NCBI GenBank assembly: GCA_943354605.1
Contig: CALRCK010000001.1
Span: forward strand, 84,936-148,935
Reading direction: 5' to 3'
Origin: Candidatus Uhrbacteria bacterium
GTDB taxonomy: Bacteria > Patescibacteriota > Patescibacteriia > UBA9934
Length of the DNA stretch: 64,000 nucleotides
Shown piece by piece: positions 766 to 33,299 of this stretch. Each line of letters opens with the position of its first letter. Positions within the stretch are counted from its first letter, which is position 1. A program made the translations under genes and the position numbers. The notes below the pieces were generated by a model. The model made no database searches and was not told the origin of the DNA. It saw nothing but the letters and a program-made list of their open reading frames with translations.

Positions 766-797
766 ACGCCATTCAGCGCGTGTTATACTTGTTCTAT

Positions 798-1361
798 ATG
801 TTTCGCGCGCTTAAGATTGCCGTTCTTGGTGTGATCCTCTCAACGTCTTTTGGTATTTTTGTGCCAGCCGTTGATGTGCGTGCTGCAGATCTTGGTGCGC
901 AGTACACGGAGATCAATTCATCAGGAACGTCTTCGCAGGGGCTTATTTTTGCAGGAATCTGTCCTAGCTCTACGGATCCAACAACCGGGCTCAATCACTG
1001 CACGGAATGTCGCGACCACGGAAACTGTACGCTCTCCGATGTGCTGCAGGTGTTCGTGAACCTTTCCACGTTCATTCTTGGCATCAGCGGAACCGCGGTG
1101 CTGTTCGTCTTCGTTTATGGTGGGTTTAAGTGGGTGTTTTCCCGTGGGGATTCACACTGGATTACCGAAGGAAAGGACGCTATTACCGCGGCAATTATTG
1201 GACTTTGTATTATCTTTGGCGCGTACGTTGCGATTAACTTTATTGTTTCTGGTCTCACCACAAAGGGGGGCGCGACGCCATCATCCGGAAAGCTCGAAGA
1301 TACGGTGAATCAAAGTGTGACGGGCGGCACAGGAGCGACCGGAGTTTTTACTACTGAATAA
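798..1361 (+). CDS. pilin-like small membrane protein A (TrbC/VirB2-like candidate) with a Cys-rich insert
   Basis: ORF 780..1361, with the likely start at MFRALKIAVLGV. It has an N-terminal hydrophobic leader, a CPSSTDPTTGLNHCTECRDHGNC segment, and then the conserved module VYGGFKWVFSRGDS…GKDAI flanked by two hydrophobic helices. Confidence 0.45.
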   Translation: MFRALKIAVLGVILSTSFGIFVPAVDVRAADLGAQYTEINSSGTSSQGLIFAGICPSSTDPTTGLNHCTECRDHGNCTLSDVLQVFVNLSTFILGISGTAVLFVFVYGGFKWVFSRGDSHWITEGKDAITAAIIGLCIIFGAYVAINFIVSGLTTKGGATPSSGKLEDTVNQSVTGGTGATGVFTTE

Positions 1362-1367
1362 TGGTAT

Positions 1368-1736
1368 ATGAAGAAGATTTTTCGATACGCGATTCTTGCA
1401 TCAATTGTGCTCCTCCCATTTGCTGCGCATGTTGCGCTCGCAGCAACATCAACGTCGTCGGTGACATTGATCAATCCCCTTGGCGACGAGGCTCGTGATG
1501 TTCGCGTACTTTTTGGTCGAGTCATTTCCGCGGCACTATCGATCGTGGGTGGACTTGCATTGTTGATGTTCGTTTATGGCGGCTTGCTCTGGATGACATC
1601 GCGCGGTGAATCGAAACAGGTTACGAAAGGGAAAGATACAATTACCTGGGCTACGCTTGGACTGGTCATTATCTTTGCGTCGTACACGCTGGTGAATGCA
1701 TTGATTTCCGGAATCACATCCGGAAATGCCACGTAA
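1368..1736 (+). CDS. pilin-like small membrane protein B
   Basis: The protein has a signal-peptide-like N-terminus (ILASIVLLPFAAHVALA), then VYGGLLWMTSRGESKQVTKGKDTI between two hydrophobic helices. Confidence 0.5.
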   Translation: MKKIFRYAILASIVLLPFAAHVALAATSTSSVTLINPLGDEARDVRVLFGRVISAALSIVGGLALLMFVYGGLLWMTSRGESKQVTKGKDTITWATLGLVIIFASYTLVNALISGITSGNAT

Positions 1737-1781
1737 GAAAATGGCGTGATATACTATTCTCAACAATTATTCTTCTCCCGT

Positions 1782-2183
1782 ATGATGAAATCTCTCGTCC
1801 GTTTCGCGATGAGTGTGGTACTCGGCCTGGCTATTGCGCTTCCGTTCGTACATATCGGTGCTGTTCATGCGGCATCTGGTCAGCTTGAGGCAACAGATTT
1901 ACTCGGGACGGACTTTGGTGACGCAACCGGTCTTGGTCAGGGCGATCTCACGACAACGATCGGTTCGTTGATCCGTGTCGCACTTGGATTCCTTGGCGTT
2001 GTTGCGGTGGTGATTATTCTCTTGGGTGGATTTAAGTGGATGACGGCTGGCGGAAGTGACGAAAAGGTTGGCGAAGCAAAGAAGCTCATCATCGCCGGTA
2101 TCATCGGTTTGGCGATTATTCTCTCGGCATACGCTATTGCATCGTTCGTTATCAGCTCGATTGTTGGTGCGGCAGCAGGATAA
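1782..2183 (+). CDS. pilin-like small membrane protein C
   Basis: ORF 1746..2183 with the probable start at MMKSLVRF. It has an N-terminal signal-like helix and the module LLGGFKWMTAGGSDEKVGEAKKLII plus a C-terminal helix. Confidence 0.5.
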   Translation: MMKSLVRFAMSVVLGLAIALPFVHIGAVHAASGQLEATDLLGTDFGDATGLGQGDLTTTIGSLIRVALGFLGVVAVVIILLGGFKWMTAGGSDEKVGEAKKLIIAGIIGLAIILSAYAIASFVISSIVGAAAG

Positions 2184-2238
2184 TCGATTCGACGTTGTCT
2201 CATGACGCTCGCCCCGAAGAATATTCGGGGCCTGCACT

Positions 2239-2589
2239 ATGCGAGAACTGTTGGCGCTGACAACAATAGACGGATCAACAACGGGACTCTCTTCAACGGG
2301 AACCGCGGCGTTTGGTTCAACGTGGGTTCGCACGCAGAGCGCAACGTCGCTGTCGTATTTCATCGGCCACAACATCATTCAGCCAATTTTTGGCTTGGTG
2401 GGATTGGCATTTTTCGTGCTTGCCGTCTATGCCGGCGTGTTGTGGATGACGGCGCAGGGGGATTCGAAGAAGGTGGACAAAGCAAAAGATATTTTGGTGT
2501 CGGCAACGGTGGGATTGGTGATTATTGTTGCATCGTACGTGCTGACGAACGCAATTTTGAGTGCCGTGACGTCCGGAACGGTAACCTAG
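2239..2589 (+). CDS. pilin-like small membrane protein D
   Basis: A hydrophilic, Thr/Ser-rich N-terminus is followed by VYAGVLWMTAQGDSKKVDKAKDILV between two hydrophobic helices. Confidence 0.5.
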   Translation: MRELLALTTIDGSTTGLSSTGTAAFGSTWVRTQSATSLSYFIGHNIIQPIFGLVGLAFFVLAVYAGVLWMTAQGDSKKVDKAKDILVSATVGLVIIVASYVLTNAILSAVTSGTVT

Positions 2590-2596
2590 TGCCGAT

Positions 2597-2941
2597 ATGA
2601 TCCGACTTCTTGCTGCGGCAACTGCGCCCTTCAATGCTGATCCACTTTCAAATGCTGGTGCGGCGGCATACGGTGGCACCGTGCCTTCGACCACCCTTTT
2701 TTCCCTGATCAACAGCATTATCACTGCGATATTCAGCGTTCTTGGCCTCATATTCCTTTTCCTTACGCTCTACGCGGGGTATTTATGGATGACGGCGATG
2801 GGGGATTCAAAGAAAGTGACGCGAGCAAAGGATATGCTGTCGCAGGCGGTCATCGGGCTCATCATTGTTGTACTCTCGTACGGAATTTCCTTCTTCGTGG
2901 TCGATCTTATTGGGACCGCTGGAGGATTCGGCGGGATATAA
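2597..2941 (+). CDS. pilin-like small membrane protein E
   Basis: It carries the same module (LYAGYLWMTAMGDSKKVTRAKDML) between two hydrophobic helices. Confidence 0.5.
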   Translation: MIRLLAAATAPFNADPLSNAGAAAYGGTVPSTTLFSLINSIITAIFSVLGLIFLFLTLYAGYLWMTAMGDSKKVTRAKDMLSQAVIGLIIVVLSYGISFFVVDLIGTAGGFGGI

Positions 2942-2953
2942 ACGCTCGCATTT

Positions 2954-3066
2954 GGCCCATTTTCGACTCAGGCCTTCGGAAACTTCTTCAACGTACCGAG
3001 AAGTACGCCTCAGAAGCTTTCCTCGCCCTTCATCGAAACTGGTCTCAAATGAGAGCGTTTATCTCG
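2954..3066. repeat. ~112-nt repeat family R1, copy 1 (forward orientation)
   Basis: This copy aligns along its length with the reverse complements of 16151-16264 and 26825-26936. Shared blocks include GCCCATTTTCG…AACGTACCGAGAAGTACGCCTC…CGAAACTGGTCT.AAATGAGA. It contains a hairpin CGTAC-n6-GTACG. Confidence 0.6.
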
Positions 3067-3132
3067 GGCAATCATCCACAGCGAGTATTTTCTCAACGTG
3101 ATACACTATTCACATAATATTTTGTCCATCGT

Positions 3133-3516
3133 ATGTCGAAGCTCAAGAACATTCTCATCGGCGCAGCGCTCGTAGCACTGCCATTCGGTGCAGCATTGAG
3201 AATCCCAGTAGTACACGCATCGCCAGATCTCACCACGAATCTTTCCGACGTGAATGCTGACGCATCGCTTGGATCGGAGGACCTTACCGCAACCATCGGT
3301 AAGCTGATCTCTGCATTGCTCAGCGTGCTTGGTGTGATTTTCTTGCTTCTCATCATTTGGGCAGGTTTCACCTGGATGACCGCACAGGGAGACTCGAAGA
3401 AGGTGGACAAAGCAAAGGACATTCTCATCACATCTGTTGTTGGTCTGATCATCTTGCTCTCGGCATACGCCATCAGCACGTTCGTCATCGACCAGTTGGC
3501 GACAGCTACGGGATAG
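3133..3516 (+). CDS. pilin-like small membrane protein F
   Basis: It has a signal-like N-terminus, then IWAGFTWMTAQGDSKKVDKAKDILI between two hydrophobic helices. That core is near-identical to D. Confidence 0.55.
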   Translation: MSKLKNILIGAALVALPFGAALRIPVVHASPDLTTNLSDVNADASLGSEDLTATIGKLISALLSVLGVIFLLLIIWAGFTWMTAQGDSKKVDKAKDILITSVVGLIILLSAYAISTFVIDQLATATG

Positions 3517-3534: not shown

Positions 3535-3562
3535 GAAAAGACGACCCGCATGGGTCGTTTTT
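3535..3562 (+). terminator. rho-independent terminator after the pilin-like array
   Basis: The sequence is AAAAGACGACCCGCATGGGTCGTTTTTT, a stem-loop followed by a T-run. Confidence 0.6.
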
Positions 3563-3659
3563 TCGTTTGAAAAGCGAGAGACCCCGGAATCCTTTCGGAC
3601 GCCGGGGTCTCCGTTGCGTGGGTCACGTCACCGTCACCCGAACCTCGTCGCGCGTCCCC

Positions 3660-5609
3660 TCAGTTGCAGGGGTACGAGGTGTCGTTCACCTTGTCGCACT
3701 GCGCGCGGCCGCCGTAGGCTTCGAGGGCTTCCGCCTTCTTCTCCGCCTTCGTCTTGGCTCGCGGCTGCCTGGCCGCGGGCTTCGACCCCGACGTCGCGCC
3801 GCTGCCGCTGCCAACCGCGTTTTCCGCGTAGTCGAGCACCTTGGAGCCGCCATTGCTGACGACCCCGGCCGCGCGCGTGGCGCCGTGGCTCATCGACGTT
3901 TCCGTCTCCGAGATCCACTGCGCGCCGAAGATGCGAACGACGATGAACGCCGCGAGCACCCCGGCCGTGACAACGCGCAGCGCGTTGTACCCGTACTGCA
4001 GGTTGAGGATGTCCTGCTTCTCGATCTCGGCGCCGAGCTTCCCCGCGTACGAGCCGTACACCTTCATCGTGGCGCCACGCTTCAGGTACCCGTACGCAAT
4101 GGCGAGGATCGCGATGAACGTGATGCCGCCGATGCGCCAGCTCTGCGGCGTGTTGAGCGCGAGCGCGAGGGTGAGAGGGATCCACGCGAGCACGATCGCG
4201 GAAGCGACCGTGGCACTGATGTTCACGAGGAAGTTGGTTTTGGCCAGCTCCTTCGACAGCGCGTCCACGTGTTCCTTCTCCATCCGGATGATGCTCTTGA
4301 TGAACGCCGGGATGGCGCCCACCGTCTGCCCACCCTTCTGGAGGAGGTTGATGCTCACGAAGTCGAAGGTCACGATGACGAGGAGGCTCACCCAGTAGGC
4401 GAACCAGTCCACCGTCGGCGTGAAGATCGCCGTGATCACCCACACGAGGGTGAGCGCCATCGGCGCCGCGTAGAAGCCGAGGAGCACGCCCACCACCTGC
4501 ACCGCGCCGGAGACGATCCAGCCGAAGGCCATCATGAGCGCCGAGACGCCCAAGATGGTCACGGTGGACCCCCAGGCGAAGCCCGGGAGCCAGTCCTGGT
4601 GCCAGTTTCCGATCCACAGCGTGATGATGCCGTAGATGATGAGCGCGCCGACGACTGCCACCGAACCCTTGCTCACGTTGGCGGCCGTGCGGATGGCCGC
4701 CTGCGCCTTCACGAACGCGCTGCTCGGCTGGAGGCCTGCGAACAGGTGCAGCCGGTCGAGCATGTCCATGCCGCTGGCGACGGCGTTGGTGCCCTGGTTG
4801 CGATCCGCCTGGCCGACGAGGAGGAACTCGAACGCCGGGATCATCCGGCGCACGAAGTTCTCCGCGGAGCGCCGCCAGCCCTCGAGGTTCGGGCCGCTCT
4901 GGCACCCGTGGTTCTCGAAGTCGCGGATCTCCCCCACGAACTCCACGGCGGCATCGAAGTCCGGGCCCGAGAGCCAGTTCTTGATGTCGTCCGCGTTGTC
5001 GCGGAGGGTGTTGAGGAACCCCACGCCGGCCACCGCCGCCTCGCCTTCCAGCTCGGCAACGATGTCGGTGCCGGGCGTGGCTTCGATCCGCATGAGGCGG
5101 AACATGTAGAGGAGGACGAGCTGCTGGGTGTCGGAGTACCCGGCGCCTGCGGTTGCTCCGGAGAGCGCGCGCTGGACGCGGGAGTACGACGCCACCGGAA
5201 CAGCTGCCGGGGTGGGGGTGGTTGCGGGAGAGGCGGTTGCGGGGGTGGCCATGAGGGCTCCGATTCGGGGGTTGCGGGAAAAATTCCGCCAGTGCGCGAC
5301 GACGTCGGCACGGGCTTCTTCGGTGGTCTTGCCGGTCACGCCGCGCAGCATGCGCGACGTCGGCGGGATGGTTTCCACGAATTCGCCCAGCAGGGACAGC
5401 ACACCGCCACGGTTCTGCAACCGCTGAGCGATGAACAGGATGGCCGGGCTGGCGATGTTCGGGATGCTGGCGTAGAGGTCGAAGATGACCCCCACGAATC
5501 CCTCGAGGTTGTCGGACCCACGGATGCGGGCCACGATTTCGTCGGGGAGGCGCTGCTCTCCGTCTTCGGTGAGGGCACGGATGAGGCTTTGGAAGTTGGA
5601 ATCGCTCAT
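3660..5609 (-). CDS. large polytopic membrane protein in GC-rich block 1 (~330-aa soluble N-terminal region plus ~7-8 TM helices), function unknown
   Basis: This is the long minus-strand ORF 3660..5777, with the likely start at MSDSNFQSL (ATG at 5607-5609). The sequence is coherent, with clear hydrophobic helices. The overlapping plus-strand 690-aa ORF and the other-frame minus-strand 669-aa ORF are Arg/Pro/Gly-rich artefacts of high GC. Confidence 0.5.
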   Translation of the reverse strand: MSDSNFQSLIRALTEDGEQRLPDEIVARIRGSDNLEGFVGVIFDLYASIPNIASPAILFIAQRLQNRGGVLSLLGEFVETIPPTSRMLRGVTGKTTEEARADVVAHWRNFSRNPRIGALMATPATASPATTPTPAAVPVASYSRVQRALSGATAGAGYSDTQQLVLLYMFRLMRIEATPGTDIVAELEGEAAVAGVGFLNTLRDNADDIKNWLSGPDFDAAVEFVGEIRDFENHGCQSGPNLEGWRRSAENFVRRMIPAFEFLLVGQADRNQGTNAVASGMDMLDRLHLFAGLQPSSAFVKAQAAIRTAANVSKGSVAVVGALIIYGIITLWIGNWHQDWLPGFAWGSTVTILGVSALMMAFGWIVSGAVQVVGVLLGFYAAPMALTLVWVITAIFTPTVDWFAYWVSLLVIVTFDFVSINLLQKGGQTVGAIPAFIKSIIRMEKEHVDALSKELAKTNFLVNISATVASAIVLAWIPLTLALALNTPQSWRIGGITFIAILAIAYGYLKRGATMKVYGSYAGKLGAEIEKQDILNLQYGYNALRVVTAGVLAAFIVVRIFGAQWISETETSMSHGATRAAGVVSNGGSKVLDYAENAVGSGSGATSGSKPAARQPRAKTKAEKKAEALEAYGGRAQCDKVNDTSYPCN

Positions 5610-5639
5610 GGCGAATTCTCCGGGGCTGTGATGAATTGA

Positions 5640-5830
5640 ACAATTGACGCGAGTTTTGAAAGATGCGGAAAATAAGGGGTTTCCCCAGGATTTCCGGACT
5701 GGGGAGAATAGCAGAAAAATGCAGAAAAGTAAAGGGAAAGGAGGGTTTTGGGGAAAATGAGGTTTCCCCAGGGCCACCTTTACTTTTCCCTGTTTTTCTG
5801 CTATAGTAAAGGGTTAGATTCCTTCAAAAC
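5640..5830. promoter_or_regulatory. divergent intergenic control region with direct and inverted repeats
   Basis: GGTTTCCCCAGG occurs twice (about 5678 and 5762). GCAGAAAAGTAAAGGG faces an imperfect inverted copy CCTTTACTTTTCCCTGTTTTTCTGC. The region is locally AT-rich and lies between two divergently oriented GC-rich genes. Confidence 0.3.
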
Positions 5831-5897
5831 TCGTGTACATTGTTCGATTCACCCGCCGATGCCGCAAAGGATCGGTTTCTCTCGCCAGAGGTCTCTC

Positions 5898-6602
5898 ATG
5901 CTCCTGTCCCTCATCCTGTCTTCCCTCATCTCCGCGGCCCGTGCCGAGGAGCCCACCATCAACGTCACGGTCGTGGCCCCCGCGGTCACGGACGAGGCGG
6001 CCGATGCCACCGAGATCCCGACCAGCCAGTACGGCGTGTCGCTCGTCATCGGCAGCAACTGCAGCGTCAAGGTCACCGGCAAGAACCTGTCCGCCAAAAA
6101 GGCGGGGCAGCTCGCCGGCGAGATCGAGGCGGCCAAGGGCAAGTGCATGGCCAACAAGGCCCGCCGCGACGACAAGGCTCGCGCCGACCAGGTCGCCACC
6201 GCCCGCTCGAAGTCCGAGGACACCCTCATCTCGGCCGGCGCGGATGCGGTCAAGAATGGCGGCAGCGTGGACTACAGCTCCAAGGCCAACGGCGATCTCC
6301 ACTTCGTGGCGGGTCCGGCGGCCGAGTGGAGCGCGTACGGCACCGCGGTCAGCAACGGCAACGGCTACGTCCCCGGCATGTCGGTGGGCTACGTCGATCC
6401 GCAGATGGCGATGCTCTACCGCCTTGGCGCCGGCCAGGCCGCCTTCGCCGCACACCCCGTCGTCCCCGGCGCGGTGATGCCGATGCAGCCGGCCGCACAG
6501 CCCGCGACGACCACCGACAACAGCGCCGCCCTCGGTGAGTGCCAGCAGGCGCTCAAGGCCAAGGGCAAGCTGCTCGAGTCCTGCGAGAACAGCGGCTCGT
6601 AG
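5898..6602 (+). CDS. secreted hypothetical protein (GC-rich block 1)
   Basis: ORF 5748..6602 with the probable start at MLLSLILSSLISAARA, which looks like a signal peptide. It is Ala/Gly/Lys-rich and I recognise no domain. Confidence 0.45.
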   Translation: MLLSLILSSLISAARAEEPTINVTVVAPAVTDEAADATEIPTSQYGVSLVIGSNCSVKVTGKNLSAKKAGQLAGEIEAAKGKCMANKARRDDKARADQVATARSKSEDTLISAGADAVKNGGSVDYSSKANGDLHFVAGPAAEWSAYGTAVSNGNGYVPGMSVGYVDPQMAMLYRLGAGQAAFAAHPVVPGAVMPMQPAAQPATTTDNSAALGECQQALKAKGKLLESCENSGS

Positions 6603-6748
6603 TCGTCGGTGTGTGGTGCGGTCGGTCTCGAAAGGGGCCGGCCGCCGGATGGGCCACGATACGGTCCCCATTCCTCGCGGTTTGATGGAGTCCCTCGGGA
6701 CATTATTGCCGCAAAACGTTCCTCGTCTCGAAACCTCCCGGAGTTCCC

Positions 6749-7372
6749 ATGTCCTTGTTCCTCTTCCTCGTTTCTTCCTTCGCTCTCGCCGCCGCTGGTG
6801 GCCCCATGGCCCCGCGTACGGTGGCCCATCCGTACCTCCCCAACGTGGAGCTCGCGATGGACGCGTCGAACTGCTCGGCGGACACGAACTGCGTCACCGT
6901 GGTGAACACGGGAAGCACGTTCCTCGTGCCGCAGAACAGCAACGCACCGGGCGGGATGCGCGTGGTGGACCCGGAGGGGTACACGAACGGCATCTACAAG
7001 GACGGCCTTCCGGTGTTCGTCGGCTTCACGGTCGATCCCACCACCGGCGAGACTATCCCGATGCTCAACGGCACGTTCGTGTCGGCCATCGAACCCTGCA
7101 TCCGCAGCGGCTCCTGGCCCACGACCGCGCTCCGCGTGCGCACCGCCAAGGAGATCACGGTCACCGCGGAGTCGGTGGTGTTCTACCCGGAGCCGGGCCC
7201 GGTCACCAAGGCGTTCGATGTCCAGACCGGGACGATCATCCGGTACCACCCCGGCTACGGCGAGACCGTGGGTCAGGTGGACCCGATCAAGAGCGTTCTC
7301 CGGAACGCGATCGGCGAGCCGACCACCTACGCCTGGCGCATCGCGCTGGGCAACGGTCGCTGCCAGAGCTAG
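6749..7372 (+). CDS. secreted hypothetical protein with 4 Cys (GC-rich block 1)
   Basis: The N-terminus MSLFLFLVSSFALAAAGG looks like a signal peptide. No domain recognised. Confidence 0.45.
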   Translation: MSLFLFLVSSFALAAAGGPMAPRTVAHPYLPNVELAMDASNCSADTNCVTVVNTGSTFLVPQNSNAPGGMRVVDPEGYTNGIYKDGLPVFVGFTVDPTTGETIPMLNGTFVSAIEPCIRSGSWPTTALRVRTAKEITVTAESVVFYPEPGPVTKAFDVQTGTIIRYHPGYGETVGQVDPIKSVLRNAIGEPTTYAWRIALGNGRCQS

Positions 7373-7400
7373 TCGGGTTCAGCCAGTGTGACTCGTGACT

Positions 7401-7460
7401 GTTCGTCAGTACGCGTGACACACGACGGCGCCGCCATTCCTGAATAGGGGTGGCGGCGTT
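7401..7460 (+). terminator. conserved 24-nt motif GTTCGTCAGTACGCGTGACACACG followed by a GC hairpin and T-run
   Basis: The motif at 7401-7424 is identical at 23 of 24 positions to 16051-16074. Here it is followed by the hairpin GCGCCGCCA…TGGCGGCG and then TTTCGATTTT. Confidence 0.5.
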
Positions 7461-7585: not shown

Positions 7586-8917
7586 CTATACGTGAGTTTT
7601 GCGCGATACCAACATTCCTACCAAACAGAATGCGGTGAGTATCACTAAATCATTTTTGAAAAATGGGACATCGACCAAGCCATGAATCGTCATTGTGAGT
7701 ATTGCGGCAGCGAAGGCAAGGACCAGCGCGTCGTCTTTGCGTCGCCATGCGGTTCGCGTAAGAAGGAACGCTCCAGTGATCAGGCCAATAAGGCCAATAA
7801 GACCCATTTCTGACCACACATTCAGCATGATGTTGTGCGGATACTGAAAAATTTCGTAGAACGTCGCGTCGTGATACGGCGCAAGCGCTGCAGGGTAGCC
7901 GTTCAGGCCGGCCCCAAGGAACGGGCGATCTGCAAGCATGGTGAGCGTTTCACTCCATTGCGCGCGGCGAACAAGGCCGGACGAATCGTGGAGTGCAATT
8001 TTTTGAATGATCGACGGCGCGAAGAGCGACACCGCACATGCTCCGGTAATGGTTGCGGCGATGATGGCGTATTTGATTCGTCCAGCAATCGGCGCGAGGA
8101 GTCCGACGATCACGAGCGCAACGGGGATTGCGACAAGAGCGGCTTCTGTTTTTGCTGCAACAATTCCGCCGAGCATGAGGAAGATTGTAATGATTTCAGA
8201 TACACCCAAGCCCCCTCCAACTCCCCCATAAATGGCGGAGAGAAGCCCGGTGATTCCTCTCCCCCCATTTATGGGGGGAGTCGGAGGGGGGCTTTTACGC
8301 ACGGAGAGGATTCGATTGGAAAGCTGCACCATCGCCATCGTCACGATTGGCGCAATAAAGAGTCCGACAGCATTTGGATAATCATACAGCGATGTTGCGC
8401 GGTTCTCGATGGCCCAAGCGTCCGGAATACCAACGTGGGTGAGGATCTGCAGAATAGCGAGTATACCAACGGCGGTTGCCGATGCAATGAGCACGTTGAT
8501 CATACGTTCGACGTCGTCACGATCAGTCATAACCGCTCTGACCACGAACGCGAGGAGCATTGGTTCAATGATGTACGCCTTCAGAATGCCGAGCGCAGAA
8601 AGCGTGTCTGGTGCGATGATGGTAGAAATTATTCCGGCGATGACGACGAGTGCCATCGGAATCCGATACCAGCCAAACGATTCCCAAATCGTAGAGACGG
8701 CCCGGCGGGCCGTTTCCGACCGTAATCGAATCACCGCATTCGCGATCGTAATTAAAAGGAATCCTTCAAGCAGCGTGGAAGGAATCGGTCCAATAGTGAA
8801 TCGAACGAGATACGTCGGCAGGAGCGCGAAGAGGAGAACAATGCCGAGTTTTTGATTTCGCCACGAAAGAACAGCAAAGGCGGCGATTACGGCGGTGACG
8901 AGGATGGGGAAGATCAT
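7586..8917 (-). CDS. polytopic membrane protein, O-antigen ligase/polymerase-like (Wzy_C-type) candidate
   Basis: It is 443 aa with about 10-12 hydrophobic helices and sits adjacent to the Wzx-like flippase. The family assignment is by architecture only. Confidence 0.4.
   Translation of the reverse strand: MIFPILVTAVIAAFAVLSWRNQKLGIVLLFALLPTYLVRFTIGPIPSTLLEGFLLITIANAVIRLRSETARRAVSTIWESFGWYRIPMALVVIAGIISTIIAPDTLSALGILKAYIIEPMLLAFVVRAVMTDRDDVERMINVLIASATAVGILAILQILTHVGIPDAWAIENRATSLYDYPNAVGLFIAPIVTMAMVQLSNRILSVRKSPPPTPPINGGRGITGLLSAIYGGVGGGLGVSEIITIFLMLGGIVAAKTEAALVAIPVALVIVGLLAPIAGRIKYAIIAATITGACAVSLFAPSIIQKIALHDSSGLVRRAQWSETLTMLADRPFLGAGLNGYPAALAPYHDATFYEIFQYPHNIMLNVWSEMGLIGLIGLITGAFLLTRTAWRRKDDALVLAFAAAILTMTIHGLVDVPFFKNDLVILTAFCLVGMLVSRKTHV
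8208..8294. repeat. 87-nt near-perfect GC-rich palindrome embedded in-frame in the ligase-like CDS
   Basis: The arms are AAGCCCCCTCCAACTCCCCCATAAATGG and CCATTTATGGGGGGAGTCGGAGGGGGGCTT. The right arm (8257-8294) matches ileS 62597-62634 at 37 of 38 positions. In the protein it encodes …SPPPTPPINGGRGITGLLSAIYGGVGGGLG…. Confidence 0.6.
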
Positions 8918-8935
8918 AGAAAATATTCACAGAGA

Positions 8936-9018
8936 TCGTGTCATTCTGAGCGAAGCGAAGAATCTTCGTCGTGACCAACACGTAACCCACGAGAGATTCT
9001 TCGCTTCGCTCAGAATGA
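8936..9018. repeat. palindromic hairpin repeat (family R2), copy B
   Basis: GTCATTCTGAGCGAAGCGAAGAATCTTCG … CGAGAGATTCTTCGCTTCGCTCAGAATGAC is a near-perfect inverted repeat, 3' of the flippase gene. Confidence 0.6.
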
Positions 9019-9027
9019 CTGAAGAAG

Positions 9028-10485
9028 CTACGTCACGATTCCCGGATCGGGTCGGAATAATCGGAGCAGCGATTTTGGCGACGGGCCACCGAGTGCGGCG
9101 AGGGTGGTGATGTATAGAACCGTTCCCATCGGAACAGAGACAAATGCGCTTATGTCGCGAACGGCGTACAGACCGAATGCCATGACAAGCGATGCTCCAA
9201 GACACTTGGTGAAGATTTTGAGGTCCGGCTTCCATTCCGTGTGTCGAATAACGACAACGGCGGCGATGGTGCCAATGAGCGTTTCGGCAAACAACGACAT
9301 TGCCGCAGCGGCCCACATGCCAAACCGAGGAATAAAGATTGCGTAGCCGATGAGTGTGAGCGTTGCCACGAATGCGTAGGCAAACGTCATCACACGCTGT
9401 TTGCCGATTGCGACAACCGTGTAGGAGAAGAGGGAACCGAGGAACACGGCGGTGGCAGTGGGGCCGAGAATCGCGAGCACCTGTCCGGCCGGACCAAGGG
9501 AAGATTTGATGAGGGTCATTACGGCAACGCCACACAATATGCTCCCAAATGCGAATGGAACGCCGAGCATCACGAGCATATCGAAGCCGTCCTGCATGCG
9601 CTTTGCGAAGAGCGGGCGGTTGTGTGCGGCCCATGCGGCAACAAGAAGGGGGAGGAGTAGGCCCATGAGCGTTGTTGGCACCGTCGTCACCACGTCGATG
9701 ACTTTATACGCGCCGCCGTAATAGCCGATTTCCGTATCGGACCGGCCAAAGAACCACATAAAGAGCACGTCACCCTTTAAGTAGAGCAGGTTAAAGAAGA
9801 TCGAAATGCCGATCGGCCAGCTTTTTTCGAAAATGGTTTTCGCGATGCGTTTGTCGAAGCTAAACGACATTGGAATGTGGGTTCTCACGCTGCGGAGCAT
9901 CACAACGACGTGAACGATCCCGCCAACCACAAACGCGAATGCAGCGGCACCAAGCCCAAGATGCCAGAGCCATACGGCAAACACGCCAAGAAACGCAACA
10001 AATCGGTTCGCGGTTTCGGCGAGCGTTGCTTGGGTGAGCATGAGGCGTTTTTGAAACACTCCCACGAACACCTGGGCGATGGAGCTAAAGAAGAACGATC
10101 CTGCAAAGAAGAGGATTGCGAGGCGTTCATCCGGCGTCGTCGGCAAGAACATCGCCGAAATCGGTGCGATGCTTAAAAAGACAAATGCGCTGATCATGCG
10201 AACAGAGAAAATGGTTCCGAGGATTTTCTTTTCGTCTGCGCCCGGTTCCGAAATCATCTGCGCCGTGGTGAGCGTTAGCCCGAAGTCGACGAGGATCGCG
10301 AACACTGAGGCGTAGGTCTGTGCCTTGGTGAGTGCGCCATAACCAGAATCATCAAGTGTGTGAATGAGAAGCCAAAAGGTGACGAGTCCAAGAATGGTGC
10401 CAACAATCTTGCCGATCACTTGAATCACGGTGTTTTTCGCGAGCGCGCTGCGTTCGGTGGACATAGTTAGTGCAAATGATAGCAA
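9028..10485 (-). CDS. MOP-superfamily polysaccharide flippase (Wzx-like)
   Basis: It is 485 aa with about 12-14 TM helices, and its size and topology are typical of Wzx/MurJ-type transporters. An alternative start is at 10464. Confidence 0.5.
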   Translation of the reverse strand: MLSFALTMSTERSALAKNTVIQVIGKIVGTILGLVTFWLLIHTLDDSGYGALTKAQTYASVFAILVDFGLTLTTAQMISEPGADEKKILGTIFSVRMISAFVFLSIAPISAMFLPTTPDERLAILFFAGSFFFSSIAQVFVGVFQKRLMLTQATLAETANRFVAFLGVFAVWLWHLGLGAAAFAFVVGGIVHVVVMLRSVRTHIPMSFSFDKRIAKTIFEKSWPIGISIFFNLLYLKGDVLFMWFFGRSDTEIGYYGGAYKVIDVVTTVPTTLMGLLLPLLVAAWAAHNRPLFAKRMQDGFDMLVMLGVPFAFGSILCGVAVMTLIKSSLGPAGQVLAILGPTATAVFLGSLFSYTVVAIGKQRVMTFAYAFVATLTLIGYAIFIPRFGMWAAAAMSLFAETLIGTIAAVVVIRHTEWKPDLKIFTKCLGASLVMAFGLYAVRDISAFVSVPMGTVLYITTLAALGGPSPKSLLRLFRPDPGIVT

Positions 10486-10510
10486 GAATTGTTACAATAC
10501 GCTTGCATCT

Positions 10511-12358
10511 ATGCTCTCATTTTTTCGTCGAATCTGTTCTGCATTCGTCGTGGCGGCTGCGGTTCTTTCCCTTTGCCCTTTGCCCACTGCTCACGCAGCG
10601 GTGTACTCGGCATTGCAAGTCACGAATTCTGGCGGTGGAACAATCACCATGACGCCGGGCGAAGTGAAGACGATTACCACAACATTTCAAAATACTTCCG
10701 ATTTTACGTGGAAGAACGACGGCGCAGGGTACGTTTCGCTTTACACATACGGCCCAAAATATCGCACGAGTGTGTTTGATCCTGGCACGTGGCTTTCGCC
10801 AAGCCAGGTGAAACGCATGGCCGAGGCGTCGGTCGCAAAGGGAAAGATTGGAACATTTACCTTCCAGTTGAAGGCGCCAACAACCACCGGAACATACGCG
10901 GAAACATTTAAGTTGGCCTCAGAGTCGTATTCCTGGTTCGACGGCGGGGAGTTTACGTTGAATATCACCGTGAAGAATGCGGCGACGACCACAGCAAAAT
11001 CGACCACTTCATCGTCGTCGACCACCACGACCACGCCGACATCAACCACAGTCTCGTCTGACCACGCGACGCTCTCCATGGTTTCCGCAAACAAGGTGAA
11101 GGCAGTGGCAGGGAAGTCGGTCACGCTTTCTGCGGGGTTTAAAAATACGGGAACAACCACATGGAAGAGCTACGGGCTTCGTGCGCCGGACATGAGCATC
11201 GCGTCCACGGGATCGTTTAAGCATGTATCGTGGAAGGGTGACATTGTAACGTCGACCGTCGGAACCGTGAAGCCGGGGGAGACGGCATATGTGACGTTTG
11301 CGATTACGGCGCCAAAAACGAACGGCACACACACGGCGAAATTCCAGTTTACCGCAAACGATGCCGCCGTTGACGATACATTTGTTTCTATTCCGGTTGA
11401 GGTTACCGGTGGCGCCGCTGAAGCAATCAATGCACCGAAGGACGACAGCGTTGACGATGGAAGTCAGAGTGTTGCGTACATCGACGAACCAACGATTCGT
11501 GTTGGTGTGCTTATTGTGGACGAGGAAACGGATAGCCAAGTCGTCATTACGTCGGACGACAGTGATTTCGACGTAAAGGATATTGATGGCAACTTGTTGG
11601 CCGAAATGAAAAAGGGGCAATCGGTGACTGCAGCGTGGAACGGAAAAACATACACATTCGATAGGGGGAAGGGTGTTGAGAAAGTTTCAAGCGGCATCCG
11701 GTTTATTCCAAAAACCGTAAATGCAGTGATGAAAGTCTCGAATTTTGATCGTAAAGTGACACGTGGGTCGTCGTTTACGGACAATACGTTCCGAAACATT
11801 CTTGAACTTCGATACAACACGCCAAACGATCGCACATGGCTCATCAACGAGCTGCCGATGGAGTATTACCTTCGCGGCTTGGCGGAAACATCCAACATCT
11901 CGCCAGCAGAATTCCAGAAAACGCTCATCACCGCAGCGCGAACGTACGCGTTTTATCACTGGAGCCGCGCCACAAAACATAAGAGCGAATATTTCCACGT
12001 GGATGCGTGGCTCGATCAGGTCTATAAAGGGTACGGTCAAGAAGCTCGAACGCCGAATCTCACCGCAGCAGTGGACGCAACGCGTGGAAGAATTGTGACG
12101 TATCAAGGCGAGACGGCAATTACGCCATACTTCTCCCGTAGTGACGGCCGTACGCGAAGTTGGAGCGAGGTGTGGTACGGCACGGTGCCATGGTGTGTGG
12201 GCGTTACAGTTCCGGCTGATGCTGGAAAGACGTTGTGGGGACATGGCGTTGGAATGTCCGCATCTGGCGCGCTCGCGATGGCCAACGACGGCCAAACATA
12301 CGACCAAATCCTGAAATACTTTTACACGGGCATTGATGTGACGAAAAAGTGGGAATAG
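10511..12358 (+). CDS. secreted SpoIID/LytB-domain protein (peptidoglycan-active, amidase-enhancer-like) with an N-terminal Thr/Ser-rich region
   Basis: The start is MLSFFRR…, with the signal peptide inside the ORF 10430..12358. The C-terminal region carries SpoIID/LytB-like motifs (…YYLRGLAE…TYAFYH…DQVYKGYGQE…YFSRSDGRTRSW…). Confidence 0.65.
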   Translation: MLSFFRRICSAFVVAAAVLSLCPLPTAHAAVYSALQVTNSGGGTITMTPGEVKTITTTFQNTSDFTWKNDGAGYVSLYTYGPKYRTSVFDPGTWLSPSQVKRMAEASVAKGKIGTFTFQLKAPTTTGTYAETFKLASESYSWFDGGEFTLNITVKNAATTTAKSTTSSSSTTTTTPTSTTVSSDHATLSMVSANKVKAVAGKSVTLSAGFKNTGTTTWKSYGLRAPDMSIASTGSFKHVSWKGDIVTSTVGTVKPGETAYVTFAITAPKTNGTHTAKFQFTANDAAVDDTFVSIPVEVTGGAAEAINAPKDDSVDDGSQSVAYIDEPTIRVGVLIVDEETDSQVVITSDDSDFDVKDIDGNLLAEMKKGQSVTAAWNGKTYTFDRGKGVEKVSSGIRFIPKTVNAVMKVSNFDRKVTRGSSFTDNTFRNILELRYNTPNDRTWLINELPMEYYLRGLAETSNISPAEFQKTLITAARTYAFYHWSRATKHKSEYFHVDAWLDQVYKGYGQEARTPNLTAAVDATRGRIVTYQGETAITPYFSRSDGRTRSWSEVWYGTVPWCVGVTVPADAGKTLWGHGVGMSASGALAMANDGQTYDQILKYFYTGIDVTKKWE

Positions 12359-12360
12359 TG

Positions 12361-12585
12361 CTATCGGAACGAGAAAATCTTTTCGACGGGTGCTCGGAAA
12401 TATTCTGCAATACGGAGTGCGGTGAAGAGGGATGGCTGAGCTGTCCCTTTTTCGATTGCAACGAGGGCTTGGCGGCTGATCCCGAGCTCTTTTGCGAGAT
12501 CGGTTTGAGAAATTGGCTCGACGATGCGAAGTGAATAGATACGGGAAATGAATCGAATGTTTTTTTGATGAGAGTATGAATGCAT
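12361..12585 (-). CDS. XRE-family helix-turn-helix transcriptional regulator
   Basis: The sequence ISQTDLAKELGISRQALVAIEKGTAQPSLFTALRIAEYF is a classic Cro/CI-type HTH. The ORF extends to 12645 if an upstream Met is used. Confidence 0.6.
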   Translation of the reverse strand: MHSYSHQKNIRFISRIYSLRIVEPISQTDLAKELGISRQALVAIEKGTAQPSLFTALRIAEYFRAPVEKIFSFR

Positions 12586-12689
12586 AAGGAGGATCTGAAC
12601 TGATCTTTGATGGGGTTGTGAGGAATAGCGTGATGACGAATGCACATCATCGGCGATCCTGGGTGTGCGATTTGAATATTGATGTTTGT

Positions 12690-12765
12690 CAAGTTGACTT
12701 TACATTTCACGTCGATATTTGCCAATGATTTTGCACGTCGAGTGTCAAGTCAACTTGACAGTTGT
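12690..12765. promoter_or_regulatory. inverted-repeat operator candidates upstream of the XRE regulator
   Basis: TGTCAAGTTGAC (about 12693) and TGTCAAGTCAACTTGACAG (about 12744) are palindromic half-sites in the intergenic promoter region. Confidence 0.3.
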
Positions 12766-12880
12766 GAATTGTATTATTGGACACTTAATCGCCGAGCGTG
12801 TGGCGTTACCGTCGTCGATGTCGGTATCTCTGCTTGGTTCCCTCTCACTCCATCCAAGATCAGTTCACTCCGGATCAGCG

Positions 12881-13453
12881 CTATTCACCCGGTACTTCTT
12901 CTTCATGATGCACTGCATGTCCGTGGGTGTTTTTACAGGTTTTCGCAAGTCCTCCAATCGCAATCTTCACGTCCTCGGGATTATCAATATTTTTGAATTG
13001 GAACCTCTCGCGTTCTGCCGCGGTTTGCACAAAGACGTCGCCAAACGTGAGGAACGTTGCAAGCAATCCTTTTTGTTCGCTTGTCACGTCTTGAATTTGG
13101 TAGAGGTACACCTCGGAAACCACGCGGTTGAACAGTCCTTGCTGTTCCGTATTGATGATACGTTCGGTGGTGACGATCCATACATCAAGCCAGTAATCGG
13201 TCACTTCAGTGAGGGTGAGGACGAGAATGACGAGAAGGTAGGCGACGAGGGTTACTACGAGTGCCGGACCCCAGAACACGTGAGCAATGAGATCTGGATT
13301 CGCAAACTCGATGAGCGTCCCAACGACGACGGGAAGCACAAAGAGCACGCCGCTAAAGAAGAAAATGCGGATAAGATCAATCCAATGCCTGCGCAAAAAA
13401 AGCACGACTTTCTCGTTCGGCAATGCGTTCGGAAGGGTACTGAGATTCATCAT
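12881..13453 (-). CDS. membrane protein with bacterial PH-like domain (YdbS/YdbT-like, DUF304-type) candidate
   Basis: Two TM helices are followed by …VVLFLRRHW…ITTERII…, a pattern typical of bPH_2 proteins. The start was chosen at MMNL, which gives an ATGATGA overlap with the upstream small gene. Confidence 0.4.
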   Translation of the reverse strand: MMNLSTLPNALPNEKVVLFLRRHWIDLIRIFFFSGVLFVLPVVVGTLIEFANPDLIAHVFWGPALVVTLVAYLLVILVLTLTEVTDYWLDVWIVTTERIINTEQQGLFNRVVSEVYLYQIQDVTSEQKGLLATFLTFGDVFVQTAAERERFQFKNIDNPEDVKIAIGGLAKTCKNTHGHAVHHEEEVPGE

Positions 13454-14753: not shown

Positions 14754-14866
14754 ACGTTATCAAAATTGTACCGTATGGATTGACTTTTCACCATTTTTTG
14801 TGTTGAAATGCGCGCACCGCGACCCCCCGCGGAGCAGGAGAACATTCCATTTCACAGGAGCCAGCA

Positions 14867-16048
14867 ATGGCAAACCCCAAGCCCCCTCCCGATCCCACTC
14901 GTGCCACGATTCTCGGCGAGGATCCGCCGCCTTCCGCCGTTCCTTCGGCAATCCCTATGCCGCCGAACGACCGTCCGGTGCGTCCGGTTCTGCGCCCGGT
15001 CGGTCCGTCCATCACGCCCGGTACCGCCGCATTCCCGCCGGAGATGATCGTGGACCTCTCGCGTCGCACGATGGTTCCCGAAGAGGAGTTCGTCGGCGCG
15101 CCGCCGATTCCCGCAGCGTTGGTGAACGCGCGTACGCTGGGCCTTGGCCCGGCGAAGGTCACCAACGTTCCGCCCCAGCCCCCGCCCGTCCTGCAGAAGG
15201 TTGCGCTCCGCATCACCACGCGGAACGTGCCCGATGCCAAGGCGGAGTCGTGGATCCAATCCCCGACGCCGCTGGGCAAGCCGGTGGCGGTCAACAGTCG
15301 CCTCGTTGCGGTGTTCATCGCTGCCCGGGTGACGAACTTCTTCCCAGGTGCGGAGCCGGGGACGATGATCGTGGAAGTGGATCTCGCGTTCGCCCCGATG
15401 ACGCCCGGCAAGGTGGCGGAGGACTGGGCGCTGCGCTACGCACAGAACGACGCCGAGCTTCAGAAGTCGCTCACCGCGGCCCTGTACATGGCGTTCTCCC
15501 GGCTTCCGCTCTGGCCGGGACTCATCGTTCGCTTCGTTGGTGGGCCGCCAATGACGCAGGCTGATGCGGATGCGAATCGCTACCACGTCTGGATCGACGA
15601 AGCTCGCTCGCCCACGCGGGTGGAGATCGACGACCGGTTCGTGGAAGCGGCTCGAGAGCAGGCGGAGAGTGCGTACCTCAAGGCGGAAGGCGGGCTCTTC
15701 ACCAGGCTGACGCTCATGTGGTGGGAGTGGAAGAACCCGCTTCGGCTCCGCGACTATCGCATGGGAAAACTCCTCGCCGAGCGCGACGATCTGTTGGAGC
15801 TCGACAAGAAGGAGCTGGAGGCACTCAAGACGGCACTTGCTGCGTACGCTGGCCCGGTCATCAGCAGCCAGAGCGCTGTCGCCTTCGGTGACGATCTCGA
15901 TGTGAGGGCGATGATGGAAGCCAAGGGTCGGCAGGGCGTGCGACCGACGGAGATCGAGCGGCCGGAGCCCCCGCGTCGGCCGACGTACCTGGAGCACGAG
16001 CCGCTCCCGGACGGTGCGATGGTTCCGCTCCCGGACGGCGAGGGCTAA
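14867..16048 (+). CDS. Pro-rich hypothetical protein (GC-rich block 2)
   Basis: The ORF is 393 aa, is visibly GC-rich and has a Pro-rich N-terminus. A sigma70-like promoter (TTGACT-17-TGAAAT) lies at about 14798-14830. Confidence 0.4.
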   Translation: MANPKPPPDPTRATILGEDPPPSAVPSAIPMPPNDRPVRPVLRPVGPSITPGTAAFPPEMIVDLSRRTMVPEEEFVGAPPIPAALVNARTLGLGPAKVTNVPPQPPPVLQKVALRITTRNVPDAKAESWIQSPTPLGKPVAVNSRLVAVFIAARVTNFFPGAEPGTMIVEVDLAFAPMTPGKVAEDWALRYAQNDAELQKSLTAALYMAFSRLPLWPGLIVRFVGGPPMTQADADANRYHVWIDEARSPTRVEIDDRFVEAAREQAESAYLKAEGGLFTRLTLMWWEWKNPLRLRDYRMGKLLAERDDLLELDKKELEALKTALAAYAGPVISSQSAVAFGDDLDVRAMMEAKGRQGVRPTEIERPEPPRRPTYLEHEPLPDGAMVPLPDGEG

Positions 16049-16050
16049 AG

Positions 16051-16104
16051 GTTCGGCAGTACGCGTGACACACGGGAGCCTGGCGCGTACGCGTGCCAGG
16101 CTCC
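16051..16104 (+). terminator. conserved 24-nt motif GTTCGGCAGTACGCGTGACACACG followed by a GC hairpin
   Basis: The motif starts 3 nt after the TAA stop. The hairpin is GGAGCCTGGCGCGTACGCGTGCCAGGCTCC, followed by TGCTTGTTT. Confidence 0.5.
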
Positions 16105-16150
16105 TGCTTGTTTGAAACGAAATTATCGGGCAGAATGGTGGGGTGTGAGG

Positions 16151-19268: not shown

Positions 19269-19496
19269 TTAGGTTGCGAGTGCGAGTTTTGGCGCACGAG
19301 CTTCCATGGCTTTCTGTTTTAAGTACCATCCAATGGCGCCTTTACTTCCGGCCCGGAACTGATCCTTCGCCACCGTCAGCACAAACGTTTCGATGTCGTT
19401 TGCGATGTCTTCTGGCATGTCGTGCTTTTTCATGAGTGCATGAAAGTTGTCTTGGAGAATGGCGAGCCATCCCTTTTGGTATTGTCCGTCGCTCAT
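19269..19496 (-). CDS. small hypothetical protein (75 aa) translationally coupled to the upstream surface-protein gene
   Basis: The start MSDGQYQKGW overlaps the stop of 19493..21994 (ATGA). Confidence 0.3.
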   Translation of the reverse strand: MSDGQYQKGWLAILQDNFHALMKKHDMPEDIANDIETFVLTVAKDQFRAGSKGAIGWYLKQKAMEARAPKLALAT

Positions 19497-22962: not shown

Positions 22963-23054
22963 AAGTTTTACAAAACCAAAGCGCGGTCGCTCTCACAGGA
23001 TTGCTCCCGGAGTGCGACCGCGCCGTGCGTCTGCGGTGCGTTCAGCCTGACGTG

Positions 23055-23768: not shown

Positions 23769-23865
23769 GAGTGGCCCTGGGTTGCACAAAGAAAATAGCA
23801 AATATAAGCGAAAAAGTCAACTCTTTCGTTTGCGAAACGATTAATCTGCCGTATAGTGTTCCGGT

Positions 23866-26153: not shown

Positions 26154-26170
26154 AAATATTTGCTTACGAT

Positions 26171-26964: not shown

Positions 26965-29995
<3,031 letters not shown>

Positions 29996-33249: not shown

Positions 33250-33299
33250 CTGTCAGAGCTTTCGTTGACACCCCGGTGCGCGTTCGGTACGCTTCTGGC

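Follow-up and report, generated by a model that had tools for sequence, protein, structure and literature searches.

Within a 64,000-nt stretch of contig CALRCK010000001.1 (the window, in the following), a minority of genes stands out from the backbone by a high G+C content (GC), above all at third codon positions (GC3). The host is an ultra-small Candidatus Uhrbacteria-group patescibacterium of the candidate phyla radiation (CPR) with a genome of roughly the 1-Mb class; RuvB relatives at 75-95% identity all belong to Candidatus Uhrbacteria or 'Patescibacteria group' metagenome-assembled genomes. The GC-rich genes constitute a heritable compositional class. Their composition changes in a step at the block boundaries, units are present or absent between close relatives, and at one block the alleles are incongruent with their flanks. 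It is probable that the class is held by a GC-favoring fixation bias that is confined to the transcription unit.

GC was determined by sliding windows and two-state segmentation across the window. The segmentation called six sharply bounded high-GC segments (HI), which make up 14% of the window and have a GC of 63-67%, compared to 0.51 in the backbone. Under a binomial model, they lie approximately 7 to 14 standard deviations above 0.51. An earlier note on this DNA had described such a mosaic by eye and the computed values agree with it, though its backbone estimate of 45-50% was slightly low. At least seven blocks had been proposed. Besides the six called segments, the stretch 36480-37100 is weaker (GC 0.60, GC3 of its gene 0.79) and was missed by segmentation, while the rlmH stretch (26170-26600; GC 0.55, GC3 0.66) is no block. 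Thus, of two housekeeping-type genes named as GC-rich, MYG1 (GC3 0.93) is one but rlmH is not. The region 3560-7460, which had been taken as a single block, is indeed GC-rich but consists of two units parted by a 271-nt AT-richer promoter region (5581-5851, GC 0.44). The gene calls of the note proved correct, since the true frame in each block is the high-GC3 frame and the long open reading frames (ORFs) in other frames are artefacts. Predicted promoters or terminators are located at the block edges, as had been noticed. Consensus matches were also found for the suggested promoter and terminator of each block, except that block 6 apparently forms one operon instead of three units.

The GC excess is almost wholly synonymous. 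In the GC-rich genes GC3 amounts to about 0.78-0.95, compared to ~0.55 in the backbone, and GC at the first and second codon positions is close to the backbone. At four-fold sites, the GC-rich genes contain A, T, C and G at frequencies of 0.05, 0.10, 0.49 and 0.36, respectively, the backbone at 0.23, 0.21, 0.30 and 0.26. The enrichment is uniform over all codon families, and amino-acid usage is only slightly shifted, toward Gly, Ala, Arg and Pro. Untranslated regions (UTRs) and spacers of blocks 1-4 are GC-rich as well (0.59-0.70) and show no strand skew; the spacers of block 6 reach only 0.54-0.56. By arithmetic from the GC3 values, the log-odds excess of the GC-rich genes over the backbone is ~1.5-3 across families and genomes. 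A codon bias caused by translational selection in highly expressed genes was rejected because the UTRs and spacers of blocks 1-4 are affected too. Moreover, the ATP-synthase operon (L049; relatives and their contigs bear L numbers), the genes for HU and IF-2 (L037) and the pilin genes (window, L033, L035) are at backbone GC3, ribosomal-protein genes not being covered. Since these genes encode abundant proteins, the GC-rich class is not an expression-level codon effect.

At the block edges, the composition changes in a step across 60-130 nt. GC3 of 22 flanking genes is 0.545 within 150 nt of a block and 0.55-0.57 farther out, without any gradient, and the last 25 codons of the GC-rich genes still have a GC3 of 0.90. 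These steps bear on GC-biased gene conversion at recombination hot spots, in which diversifying selection would make the loci recombine unusually often and biased mismatch repair would raise their GC. Conversion would account for the fact that all codon families, non-coding transcribed DNA and, slightly, amino acids are affected with no strand skew. Allele exchange is evident at block 1 and a positive association of recombination with GC3 has been documented in bacteria (PMC4450053). However, conversion tracts would be expected to extend beyond the blocks, and when cassettes are swapped, recombination takes place in the flanking DNA. In addition, GC is only 0.47 in the 288-nt promoter region within block 1, and neither the pilin genes adjoining this block, which are equally hypervariable, nor other fast-evolving genes are GC-rich. 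For MYG1 and other cytoplasmic proteins, it is not apparent why they should be hot spots of recombination. The effect of 35-40 GC3 points also seems far above the average differences for bacterial recombining genes. Gene conversion as the cause is therefore rather improbable. A local mutation bias, which is likewise regional and decays with distance, fits poorly to step boundaries and to the spared hypervariable pilins.

Sharp compositional steps in DNA of metagenomic source would also result from a chimeric assembly or from mis-joined contigs of a co-occurring high-GC organism, an explanation offered in the earlier note. However, independent Logan contigs reproduce the pilin-block 1-Wzy junctions on both sides (L032), and L051 reproduces the right junction of block 6 (transketolase-GNAT-TrmB-g52708-MYG1). 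Such independent support exists for the two junctions of block 1 and for the right one of block 6, but not for those of g36499 and g42902 and the left one of block 6; for the exact sequence of g42902 there is no record in other assemblies, and its junctions are thus without independent support. The same blocks occur in the same gene order in more than ten genomes from different studies. Furthermore, the blocks are connected with this genome by native-type promoters and by a 19-nt element that cassettes have in common with the backbone-linked TrmB gene. On these grounds, a chimera is extremely improbable. Assemblies tend to break within GC-rich blocks; L051 itself ends inside MYG1.

Every homologue with readable context is a GC-rich island in a patescibacterial relative with 40-55% GC, among them genomes with backbones of 40-47%, and the neighboring genes keep the backbone composition as far as the block edge. 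This test covered g3660, g23055 and MYG1 and left out g36499, g50245 and g52708. To judge persistence, four-fold sites were compared. In conserved codons of backbone genes, a fraction of 0.42-0.52 differs from the closest relatives and ~0.6 (up to 0.62) from L033 and L007, saturation being at ~0.73. In the GC-rich genes, four-fold sites are at 70-95% of their own saturation level, and GC3 of the orthologues is still 0.80-0.97. A GC3 this high despite extensive four-fold turnover argues against unameliorated foreign DNA and suggests, semi-quantitatively, that the composition is maintained and not a decaying relic. There is no sign of hypermutation, since the synonymous divergence of g3660 from its counterpart in L003 is no higher than that of the backbone. 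Fast evolution alone is not the cause of the GC-richness either, because the pilin genes and g12719, g17405, g18619 and g19493 are equally divergent but at backbone GC3.

In block 1, g3660 is transcribed divergently from g5898 and g6749 (Table 1). The intervening region harbors mirrored, near-identical predicted promoters (TTTACT-N17-TGCTATAGT / TATTCT) with a common 32-nt leader, and inverted repeats at 5632-5663/5820-5851 and 5708-5735/5777-5804. The mirrored promoters are kept in four relatives (L035, L033, L003, L007). Leader and mirrored promoter were considered as a mark of all GC-rich genes, but this was rejected as they are specific to the divergent pair of block 1. The gene g6749 is presumably co-transcribed with g5898 across a spacer (6603-6748) of 0.63 GC. 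For g3660, only six homologues were detected among 5.8 billion protein clusters, and the four with readable context all reveal the order Wzx-Wzy-two small genes-membrane protein-pilin array. An AlphaFold2 model of the g3660 protein built with the six homologues is all-helical and, at a predicted local distance difference test score of 50, too poor for a fold search. Orthologues of g3660 have a GC3 of 0.80-0.91, those of g5898 (29-43% identical) 0.84-0.96 and those of g6749 0.80-0.90. The orthologous trio is GC-rich in L003, L004/L035, L007 and L033 (GC3 0.80-0.97), compared to 0.50-0.68 for pilins, Wzx, Wzy and RuvB in these relatives. In L033 and L035 it is precisely the orthologous genes that are GC-rich (0.82-0.97), all others being at 0.50-0.68. 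The history of the block is incongruent with its flanks: in L035 the flanks are 78-99% identical but the trio only 33-41%, whereas L003 shows the reverse, with pilins of 27-45% and a membrane protein of 75% identity.

The neighboring pilin region (780-3516) is a tandem array of small genes; the genes that they match on the identical contig L032 were assigned to PF18895 T4SS_pilin. Between relatives, this array is 27-99% identical; it has backbone GC and directly adjoins block 1 in all of them. Two more distant relatives with 75-77% identical RuvB, L012 (11797-15235) and L013 (1023-4869), contain paired GC-rich segments split by AT-rich spacers (0.23-0.33). These pairs resemble the divergent architecture of block 1, without detectable protein similarity to it.

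Like block 1, block 3 is syntenic, both occurring in up to nine related species. The segment adjacent to ruvB is GC-rich (0.61-0.68) in L001-L007, L009 and L033, and the protein encoded there is 24-61% identical between relatives, compared to 79-95% for RuvB. Block 4 is distributed more patchily. Its gene g23055 has only four homologues among the 5.8e9 clusters and is absent at the syntenic site in L004. Both homologues with readable context are single-gene islands in contigs of 0.43-0.55 GC, namely in L041 (GC3 0.88 vs 0.49-0.63) and in L042 (0.75 vs 0.34-0.44). As the island in L042 has a lower GC3 than that in L041, island GC partly tracks the local backbone and has no fixed donor value. 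The search for the same blocks in related genomes that the earlier note had recommended thus retrieved blocks 1, 3 and 4 in the same gene order in genomes of other groups.

Blocks 1 and 3 end in the two strongest terminators predicted for the first 20 kb. Both terminators are preceded by a 24-nt element (containing GTACGCGTGACACACG; 7401-7424 and 16051-16074), which lies between stop codon and terminator of the unrelated genes g6749 and g14867. It is kept after g6749 orthologues in L003 (16651-16666), L004 (19381-19396) and L035 (7504-7519), and degenerate copies follow g36499 (37041) and g3660 (3618). Apart from this element, no repeats were found between the blocks.

Accessory units were recognized by comparison with the close relative L043, whose backbone proteins are 81-95% identical. 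Three segments are missing there: g36048 together with g36499, g42902, and the entire stretch from 47.2 to 54.7 kb, in which no match was found between the orthologues of g46439 and g54691. Because three blocks are absent from L043 and block 1 is incongruent with its flanks, block units have evidently been gained, lost and swapped. The predicted promoter of g36499 matches the consensus at 11 of 12 positions and has a TG motif. The protein family of g42902 comprises 244 clusters at E<=1e-3. The g42902 cassette is inserted between a PfkB gene (41756-42790) and a DUF2090 aldolase-like gene (43764-44594), whose orthologues in L043 abut or overlap at 11807-11811 without g42902. The insert is ~1.03 kb long, lies on the opposite strand and has its own AT-rich predicted promoter; no repeats or target duplications were found at its junctions.

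The third accessory segment is itself a compositional mosaic, as it holds a low-GC3 gene (47489-49957) in addition to the GC-rich block 6, whose three genes probably form one operon. Its MYG1/UPF0160 protein matches PF03690 with E=1.7e-72 and 245 bits (cut-off 22.1) over profile positions 2-318 of 318. Six backbones carry MYG1 as an island, those of the window, L037 (40% GC), L039, L048, L049 and L050, with a GC3 of 0.74-0.95 compared to 0.28-0.57 locally. The other five proteins share 44-48% identity with that of the window. In L049 the gene adjoins an ATP-synthase operon at backbone GC3.

The 822-aa product of the gene at 47489-49957 (GC3 0.42) has no Pfam match. In L048, a 785-aa gene without Pfam match (1133-3490, GC3 0.36) occupies an analogous position beside TrmB and MYG1, a likeness by position. 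The same contig has a GC-rich DEAD/HA2-type helicase gene (GC3 0.85) followed by a GC-rich 659-aa gene (0.78) at 8801-12888. With this helicase, the GC-rich class includes RNA-metabolism-type genes beyond those of the window. L039 (ENA k141_786146, 136 kb) is phage-like, with many small ORFs, dNK, thymidylate kinase, Cpn10 and a PARP-like gene; in its 47% GC background, MYG1 (GC3 0.81) and a DUF7873 gene (0.76) are GC-rich.

A 19-nt element (AGCGAATATTAGCCAAGAA, with the near-palindromic core GCGAATATTAGC) is present in three copies (36389-36407, 42775-42793 and 53851-53869), twice located 3 nt upstream of the predicted -35 box (g36499, g42902) and once between the TrmB gene and the divergent predicted promoter of the MYG1 operon. 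L043 lacks all three loci. The element may be a TrmB operator that defines an accessory regulon. It was not found in distant TrmB-MYG1 loci. Related palindromes occur in the g23055 promoter (window 23798-23809; L041 1949-1960). A second TrmB-family gene is located at 33276-34052, so that the 64-kb window has two. L037, L042 and L048 likewise have TrmB genes in the vicinity of GC-rich ones, but TrmB genes are common here and adjacency is weak evidence of a link.

Table 1. Features of the GC-rich blocks and accessory units of the window. Promoters and terminators are predictions from consensus scans and direct reading.
Feature	Position	Strand	Remarks
Terminator-like hairpin closing g3660	3541-3558	-	left edge of block 1; HI boundary 3574
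HI segment, block 1, g3660 unit	3574-5580		GC 0.671
g3660	3660-5609	-	649 aa; 6 predicted transmembrane (TM) segments; no Pfam; GC 0.67, GC3 0.91
AT-richer divergent promoter region	5610-5897		288 nt; GC 0.47
Predicted promoter, block 1 divergent region	5779-5807		consensus match
HI segment, block 1, g5898 + g6749 unit	5852-7458		GC 0.673
g5898	5898-6602	+	234 aa; secreted (hydrophobic N-terminus); no Pfam; GC 0.70, GC3 0.94
g6749	6749-7372	+	207 aa; secreted; no Pfam; GC3 0.92
24-nt 3'-UTR element, then terminator	7401-7460	+	element contains GTACGCGTGACACACG; 15-bp stem (7427-7460); right edge of block 1
HI segment, block 3	14810-16107		GC 0.671
g14867	14867-16048	+	393 aa; proline-rich N-terminus; no Pfam; between ruvB and tRNA-Leu; GC3 0.81
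Second copy of 24-nt 3'-UTR element, terminator	16051-16106	+	15-bp stem (16073-16106); right edge of block 3
Terminator-like hairpin at block 4	22978-22993	-	
HI segment, block 4	22981-23757		GC 0.658
g23055	23055-23768	-	237 aa; secreted; no Pfam; patchily distributed; GC3 0.88
Predicted promoter of g23055	23792-23820	-	consensus match
Accessory cassette of g36499	36389-37035	+	19-nt element AGCGAATATTAGCAAAGAA (36389-36407); promoter TTGACA-16-TATTAT (36411-36438)
g36499	36499-37035	+	178 aa; GC3 0.79
Accessory single-gene cassette of g42902	42736-43770	+	19-nt element (42775-42793); promoter (42797-42826)
g42902	42902-43663	+	253 aa; GC3 0.78
HI segment, g42902	43021-43742		GC 0.641
Accessory segment missing in L043	47200-54700		822-aa gene, block 6, g53140, TrmB gene
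Block 6 (g52708, MYG1/UPF0160, g50245)	50245-53055	-	GC3 0.95, 0.93 and 0.72, respectively
HI segment, block 6	50264-53041		GC 0.633
g50245	50245-51342	-	365 aa
MYG1/UPF0160	51541-52461	-	306 aa
g52708	52708-53055	-	115 aa
Predicted promoter, probable block 6 operon	53794-53822	-	consensus match
TrmB-family regulator gene	53948-54703	+	divergent from the probable block 6 operon

The products of the ten GC-rich genes are a mixed set of one membrane protein with six predicted TM segments, three secreted, one proline-rich and five apparently cytoplasmic proteins. Nine of them have no Pfam family, the tenth being the full-length MYG1/UPF0160. Membership in a defense-system or phage family was rejected since PADLOC and PHROGs gave no match for any of the ten. 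The four proteins searched against sequences of solved structures (PDB) had no match. In viral collections, four block proteins were without relatives, and MYG1 had only distant matches (27-45%) that are not GC-rich. Neither self-BLAST against the 64-kb window nor all-vs-all BLASTP disclosed paralogues, partial copies or silent cassettes of the blocks. The possibility that the blocks are targets of a diversity-generating retroelement was rejected, as no repeat pair involves them and no reverse transcriptase was found among the subset of ORFs scanned with Pfam.

The other likely explanation named in the earlier note was repeated horizontal acquisition from a high-GC donor such as a phage, a host or a partner organism. 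The flux that it assumed is real, as the three blocks absent from L043 and the incongruence of block 1 demonstrate, but the donor could not be substantiated: homologues of the lineage-restricted genes were found only in related Patescibacteria, as islands in 40-55% GC backbones. A modified form of this explanation would be a recurrent import from an unsampled endemic reservoir (phage, plasmid or sister lineage) of ~65% GC, with a residence too short to ameliorate. The clean single-gene insertion of g42902, which splits an operon, the step-like boundaries and the moron-like units with their own predicted promoter and terminator are in line with import. So are the GC-normalized dinucleotide signature of the blocks, which is unlike the backbone (delta* 108 vs a sampling noise of 26 +/- 9), the presence of MYG1 on the phage-like contig L039, the position of blocks 3 and 4 near tRNA-Leu genes (~180 nt and ~600 nt away, respectively) and the abundant transfer published within the Patescibacteria (PMC12455944). 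On the other hand, no such reservoir is seen. The homologues with readable context, including that on the phage-like contig, are islands, g3660 and g23055 have hardly any relatives in the 5.8e9 clusters, and four viral scans were negative. No integrase was found among the subset of ORFs scanned, and the junctions show neither repeats nor target duplications. The alleles of blocks 1 and 3 are now only 24-41% identical while still occupying one syntenic position in genomes of ~50% GC, which implies a long residence without amelioration, and island GC partly tracks the local backbone. Continual re-import is thus unlikely to explain the composition.

Selection is most likely the maintaining force, and it is ranked above biased gene conversion and above re-import. 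The blocks are genuine contiguous parts of the chromosome. Each forms an autonomous unit of one to three genes, with a predicted AT-rich promoter of the sigma-70 type and a strong predicted hairpin terminator, and the composition belongs to the gene lineage, neither to the chromosomal place nor to a recent donor. Two groups can be distinguished. One comprises syntenic hypervariable genes: the ruvB neighbor and, adjoining the pilin array, the genes of the membrane protein and of two secreted proteins; at block 1, alleles have apparently been swapped by recombination within the lineage. The second comprises the accessory moron-like cassettes g36499, g42902 and the MYG1 operon, which are present or absent between close relatives, and the patchy g23055. 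A GC-favoring fixation bias at the level of the transcription unit, with a log-odds advantage of ~1.5-3, could counteract the mutational drift of the genome. The likeliest cause would be selection on a nucleic-acid-level property, e.g. stability or structure of the mRNA or a codon dialect for differential expression.

Several observations weigh against this proposal. The property is not absolute, as a remote homologue in L008 has a GC3 of only 0.64, and L010, L013 and L014 have no GC-rich block beside ruvB. The statement on heritability covers homologues with readable context, several others being located on contigs of 2-3 kb. In the closest pairs, synonymous sites have diverged strongly without reaching full saturation, three blocks are insertions or deletions relative to L043, so that flux from some pool is real, and the differing dinucleotide signature is also compatible with a foreign origin. 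Regarding a selected target, folding is stronger than in synonymous shuffles in only two of the ten genes; the mean z of -1.3 vs -0.3 is driven by these two and may reflect GC heterogeneity within genes. No specific motif is avoided in the blocks beyond a general avoidance of the AT motifs TTA, TAA and ATA, and no shared oligomer of the uptake-signal or Chi type links the blocks, the maxima lying within or barely above Markov simulations. Finally, the functional mix of the gene set (membrane, secreted and cytoplasmic proteins, one enzyme) reveals no common functional reason. Avoidance of endoribonuclease sites was considered and rejected, since ACA, for instance, is undepleted.

Some further features of the window are worth mentioning. 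The flanks of the blocks consist of housekeeping genes (ruvB, Wzx/Wzy, PfkB, transketolase), and the RNA genes of the window include four tRNAs and a 23S-5S rRNA pair. The 23S and 5S genes (26965-30180) have rlmH and no 16S gene upstream, so that the rRNA operon is unlinked; the 23S match of 3035 nt against a 2925-position model suggests insertions. Just upstream of rlmH and the 23S gene, the stretch 25000-26150 shows the opposite anomaly, a low GC of 0.38-0.42, with two ORFs without Pfam match (25135-25698 and 25629-26153, both on the minus strand). Lamin-tail-domain (PF00932) proteins of 833 aa (window 19493-21994) and 777 aa (L041 4685-7018) are fast-evolving (50-69% identity to relatives) yet at backbone GC.

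Atypical base composition is a standard proxy for recent horizontal transfer, and regions showing it are removed by binning and decontamination tools. In the present case, this proxy does not hold, as the gene families stay GC-rich across species, backbones and synonymous turnover. This persistence at the level of units means that some force beyond genome-wide mutation bias sets the composition gene by gene in this reduced genome. Island predictors will therefore mislabel native CPR genes as foreign. No earlier description of such a pattern in Patescibacteria or Uhrbacteria was found in the literature. While compositional islands as such are known, a heritable GC-rich gene class delimited by transcription units is new for a CPR lineage. 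More tentatively, two compositional 'dialects' might coexist in one small genome, the minority units being held at GC3 ~0.9 by selection on transcript or gene, for instance on the lifetime of the mRNA or on differential decoding, and remaining so across species, backbones of 40-55% GC and cassette transfer. Possibly, proteins of the host interface, encoded next to the pilin array, and an RNA-exonuclease module around MYG1 under TrmB-type regulation belong to this class. If true, atypical composition would mark a functional gene class and not foreignness. If the force is selection on transcripts, it would offer an entry point to gene regulation in uncultivated CPR bacteria, whose regulators are very few. 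A defined candidate set for host-interaction and RNA-metabolism genes is also flagged.

Among known systems, horizontally acquired islands share with the blocks an atypical composition and, for three blocks, a variable presence between close relatives. According to the Lawrence-Ochman model, such islands are said to ameliorate. Transferred islands are usually AT-richer than their host and drift toward its composition. By contrast, the block orthologues keep a GC3 of 0.8-0.97 even after their synonymous sites have extensively turned over, a donor could not be identified, and the ORFs scanned included no mobility genes. A further point in common is the frequent gene transfer published for Patescibacteria (PMC12455944). 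Each block carries its own predicted sigma-70-type promoter and hairpin terminator and differs in composition from both neighbors, and at least one (g42902) is inserted between two genes that abut in L043. In this, the blocks resemble phage morons, reportedly described by Hendrix and colleagues, which have a promoter and a terminator of their own and an atypical composition and are located between conserved genes. Unlike morons, the blocks reside in a cellular chromosome without prophage context, PHROG match or close viral relatives, several of them are syntenic across species, and their composition is not ameliorating.

Block 1 with its strongly diverged alleles between conserved flanks in L035, and the reverse in L003, also resembles replacement islands, in which O-antigen or pilin-type loci are swapped by flanking homology. 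A conserved GC excess is not known from replacement islands. The adjoining pilin array behaves as such a replacement locus without being GC-rich, unlike block 1.

A GC-rich island far above the genome value is the vls locus of Borrelia, which has a G+C content of ~49% vs 28.6% for the genome and is maintained in all Lyme Borrelia (PMC11499132). Like the blocks, it is conserved across species despite rapid protein divergence and has been read as actively maintained, and its hypervariable surface proteins find a parallel in blocks 1 and 4. However, the coding-strand GC skew of the blocks is -0.08 to 0.00 (vls 0.52), they have no G-runs or coding-strand G-quadruplex motifs, there are no silent cassettes or partial copies in the 64-kb window, and the set includes cytoplasmic proteins and an enzyme. 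Bimodal GC3 gene classes have been reported for grasses (PMC2895627), and a recombination-linked GC3 for bacteria (PMC4450053). Compared to the grasses, the class described here is small (~14% of the window), resides in a prokaryotic host and has step boundaries at single transcription units instead of a gradient. What both have in common are two gene classes in one genome that differ mainly in GC3, and the same debate on conversion versus selection. If selection indeed maintains the GC-rich units, they would be a prokaryotic counterpart of GC3-bimodal eukaryotic genomes.

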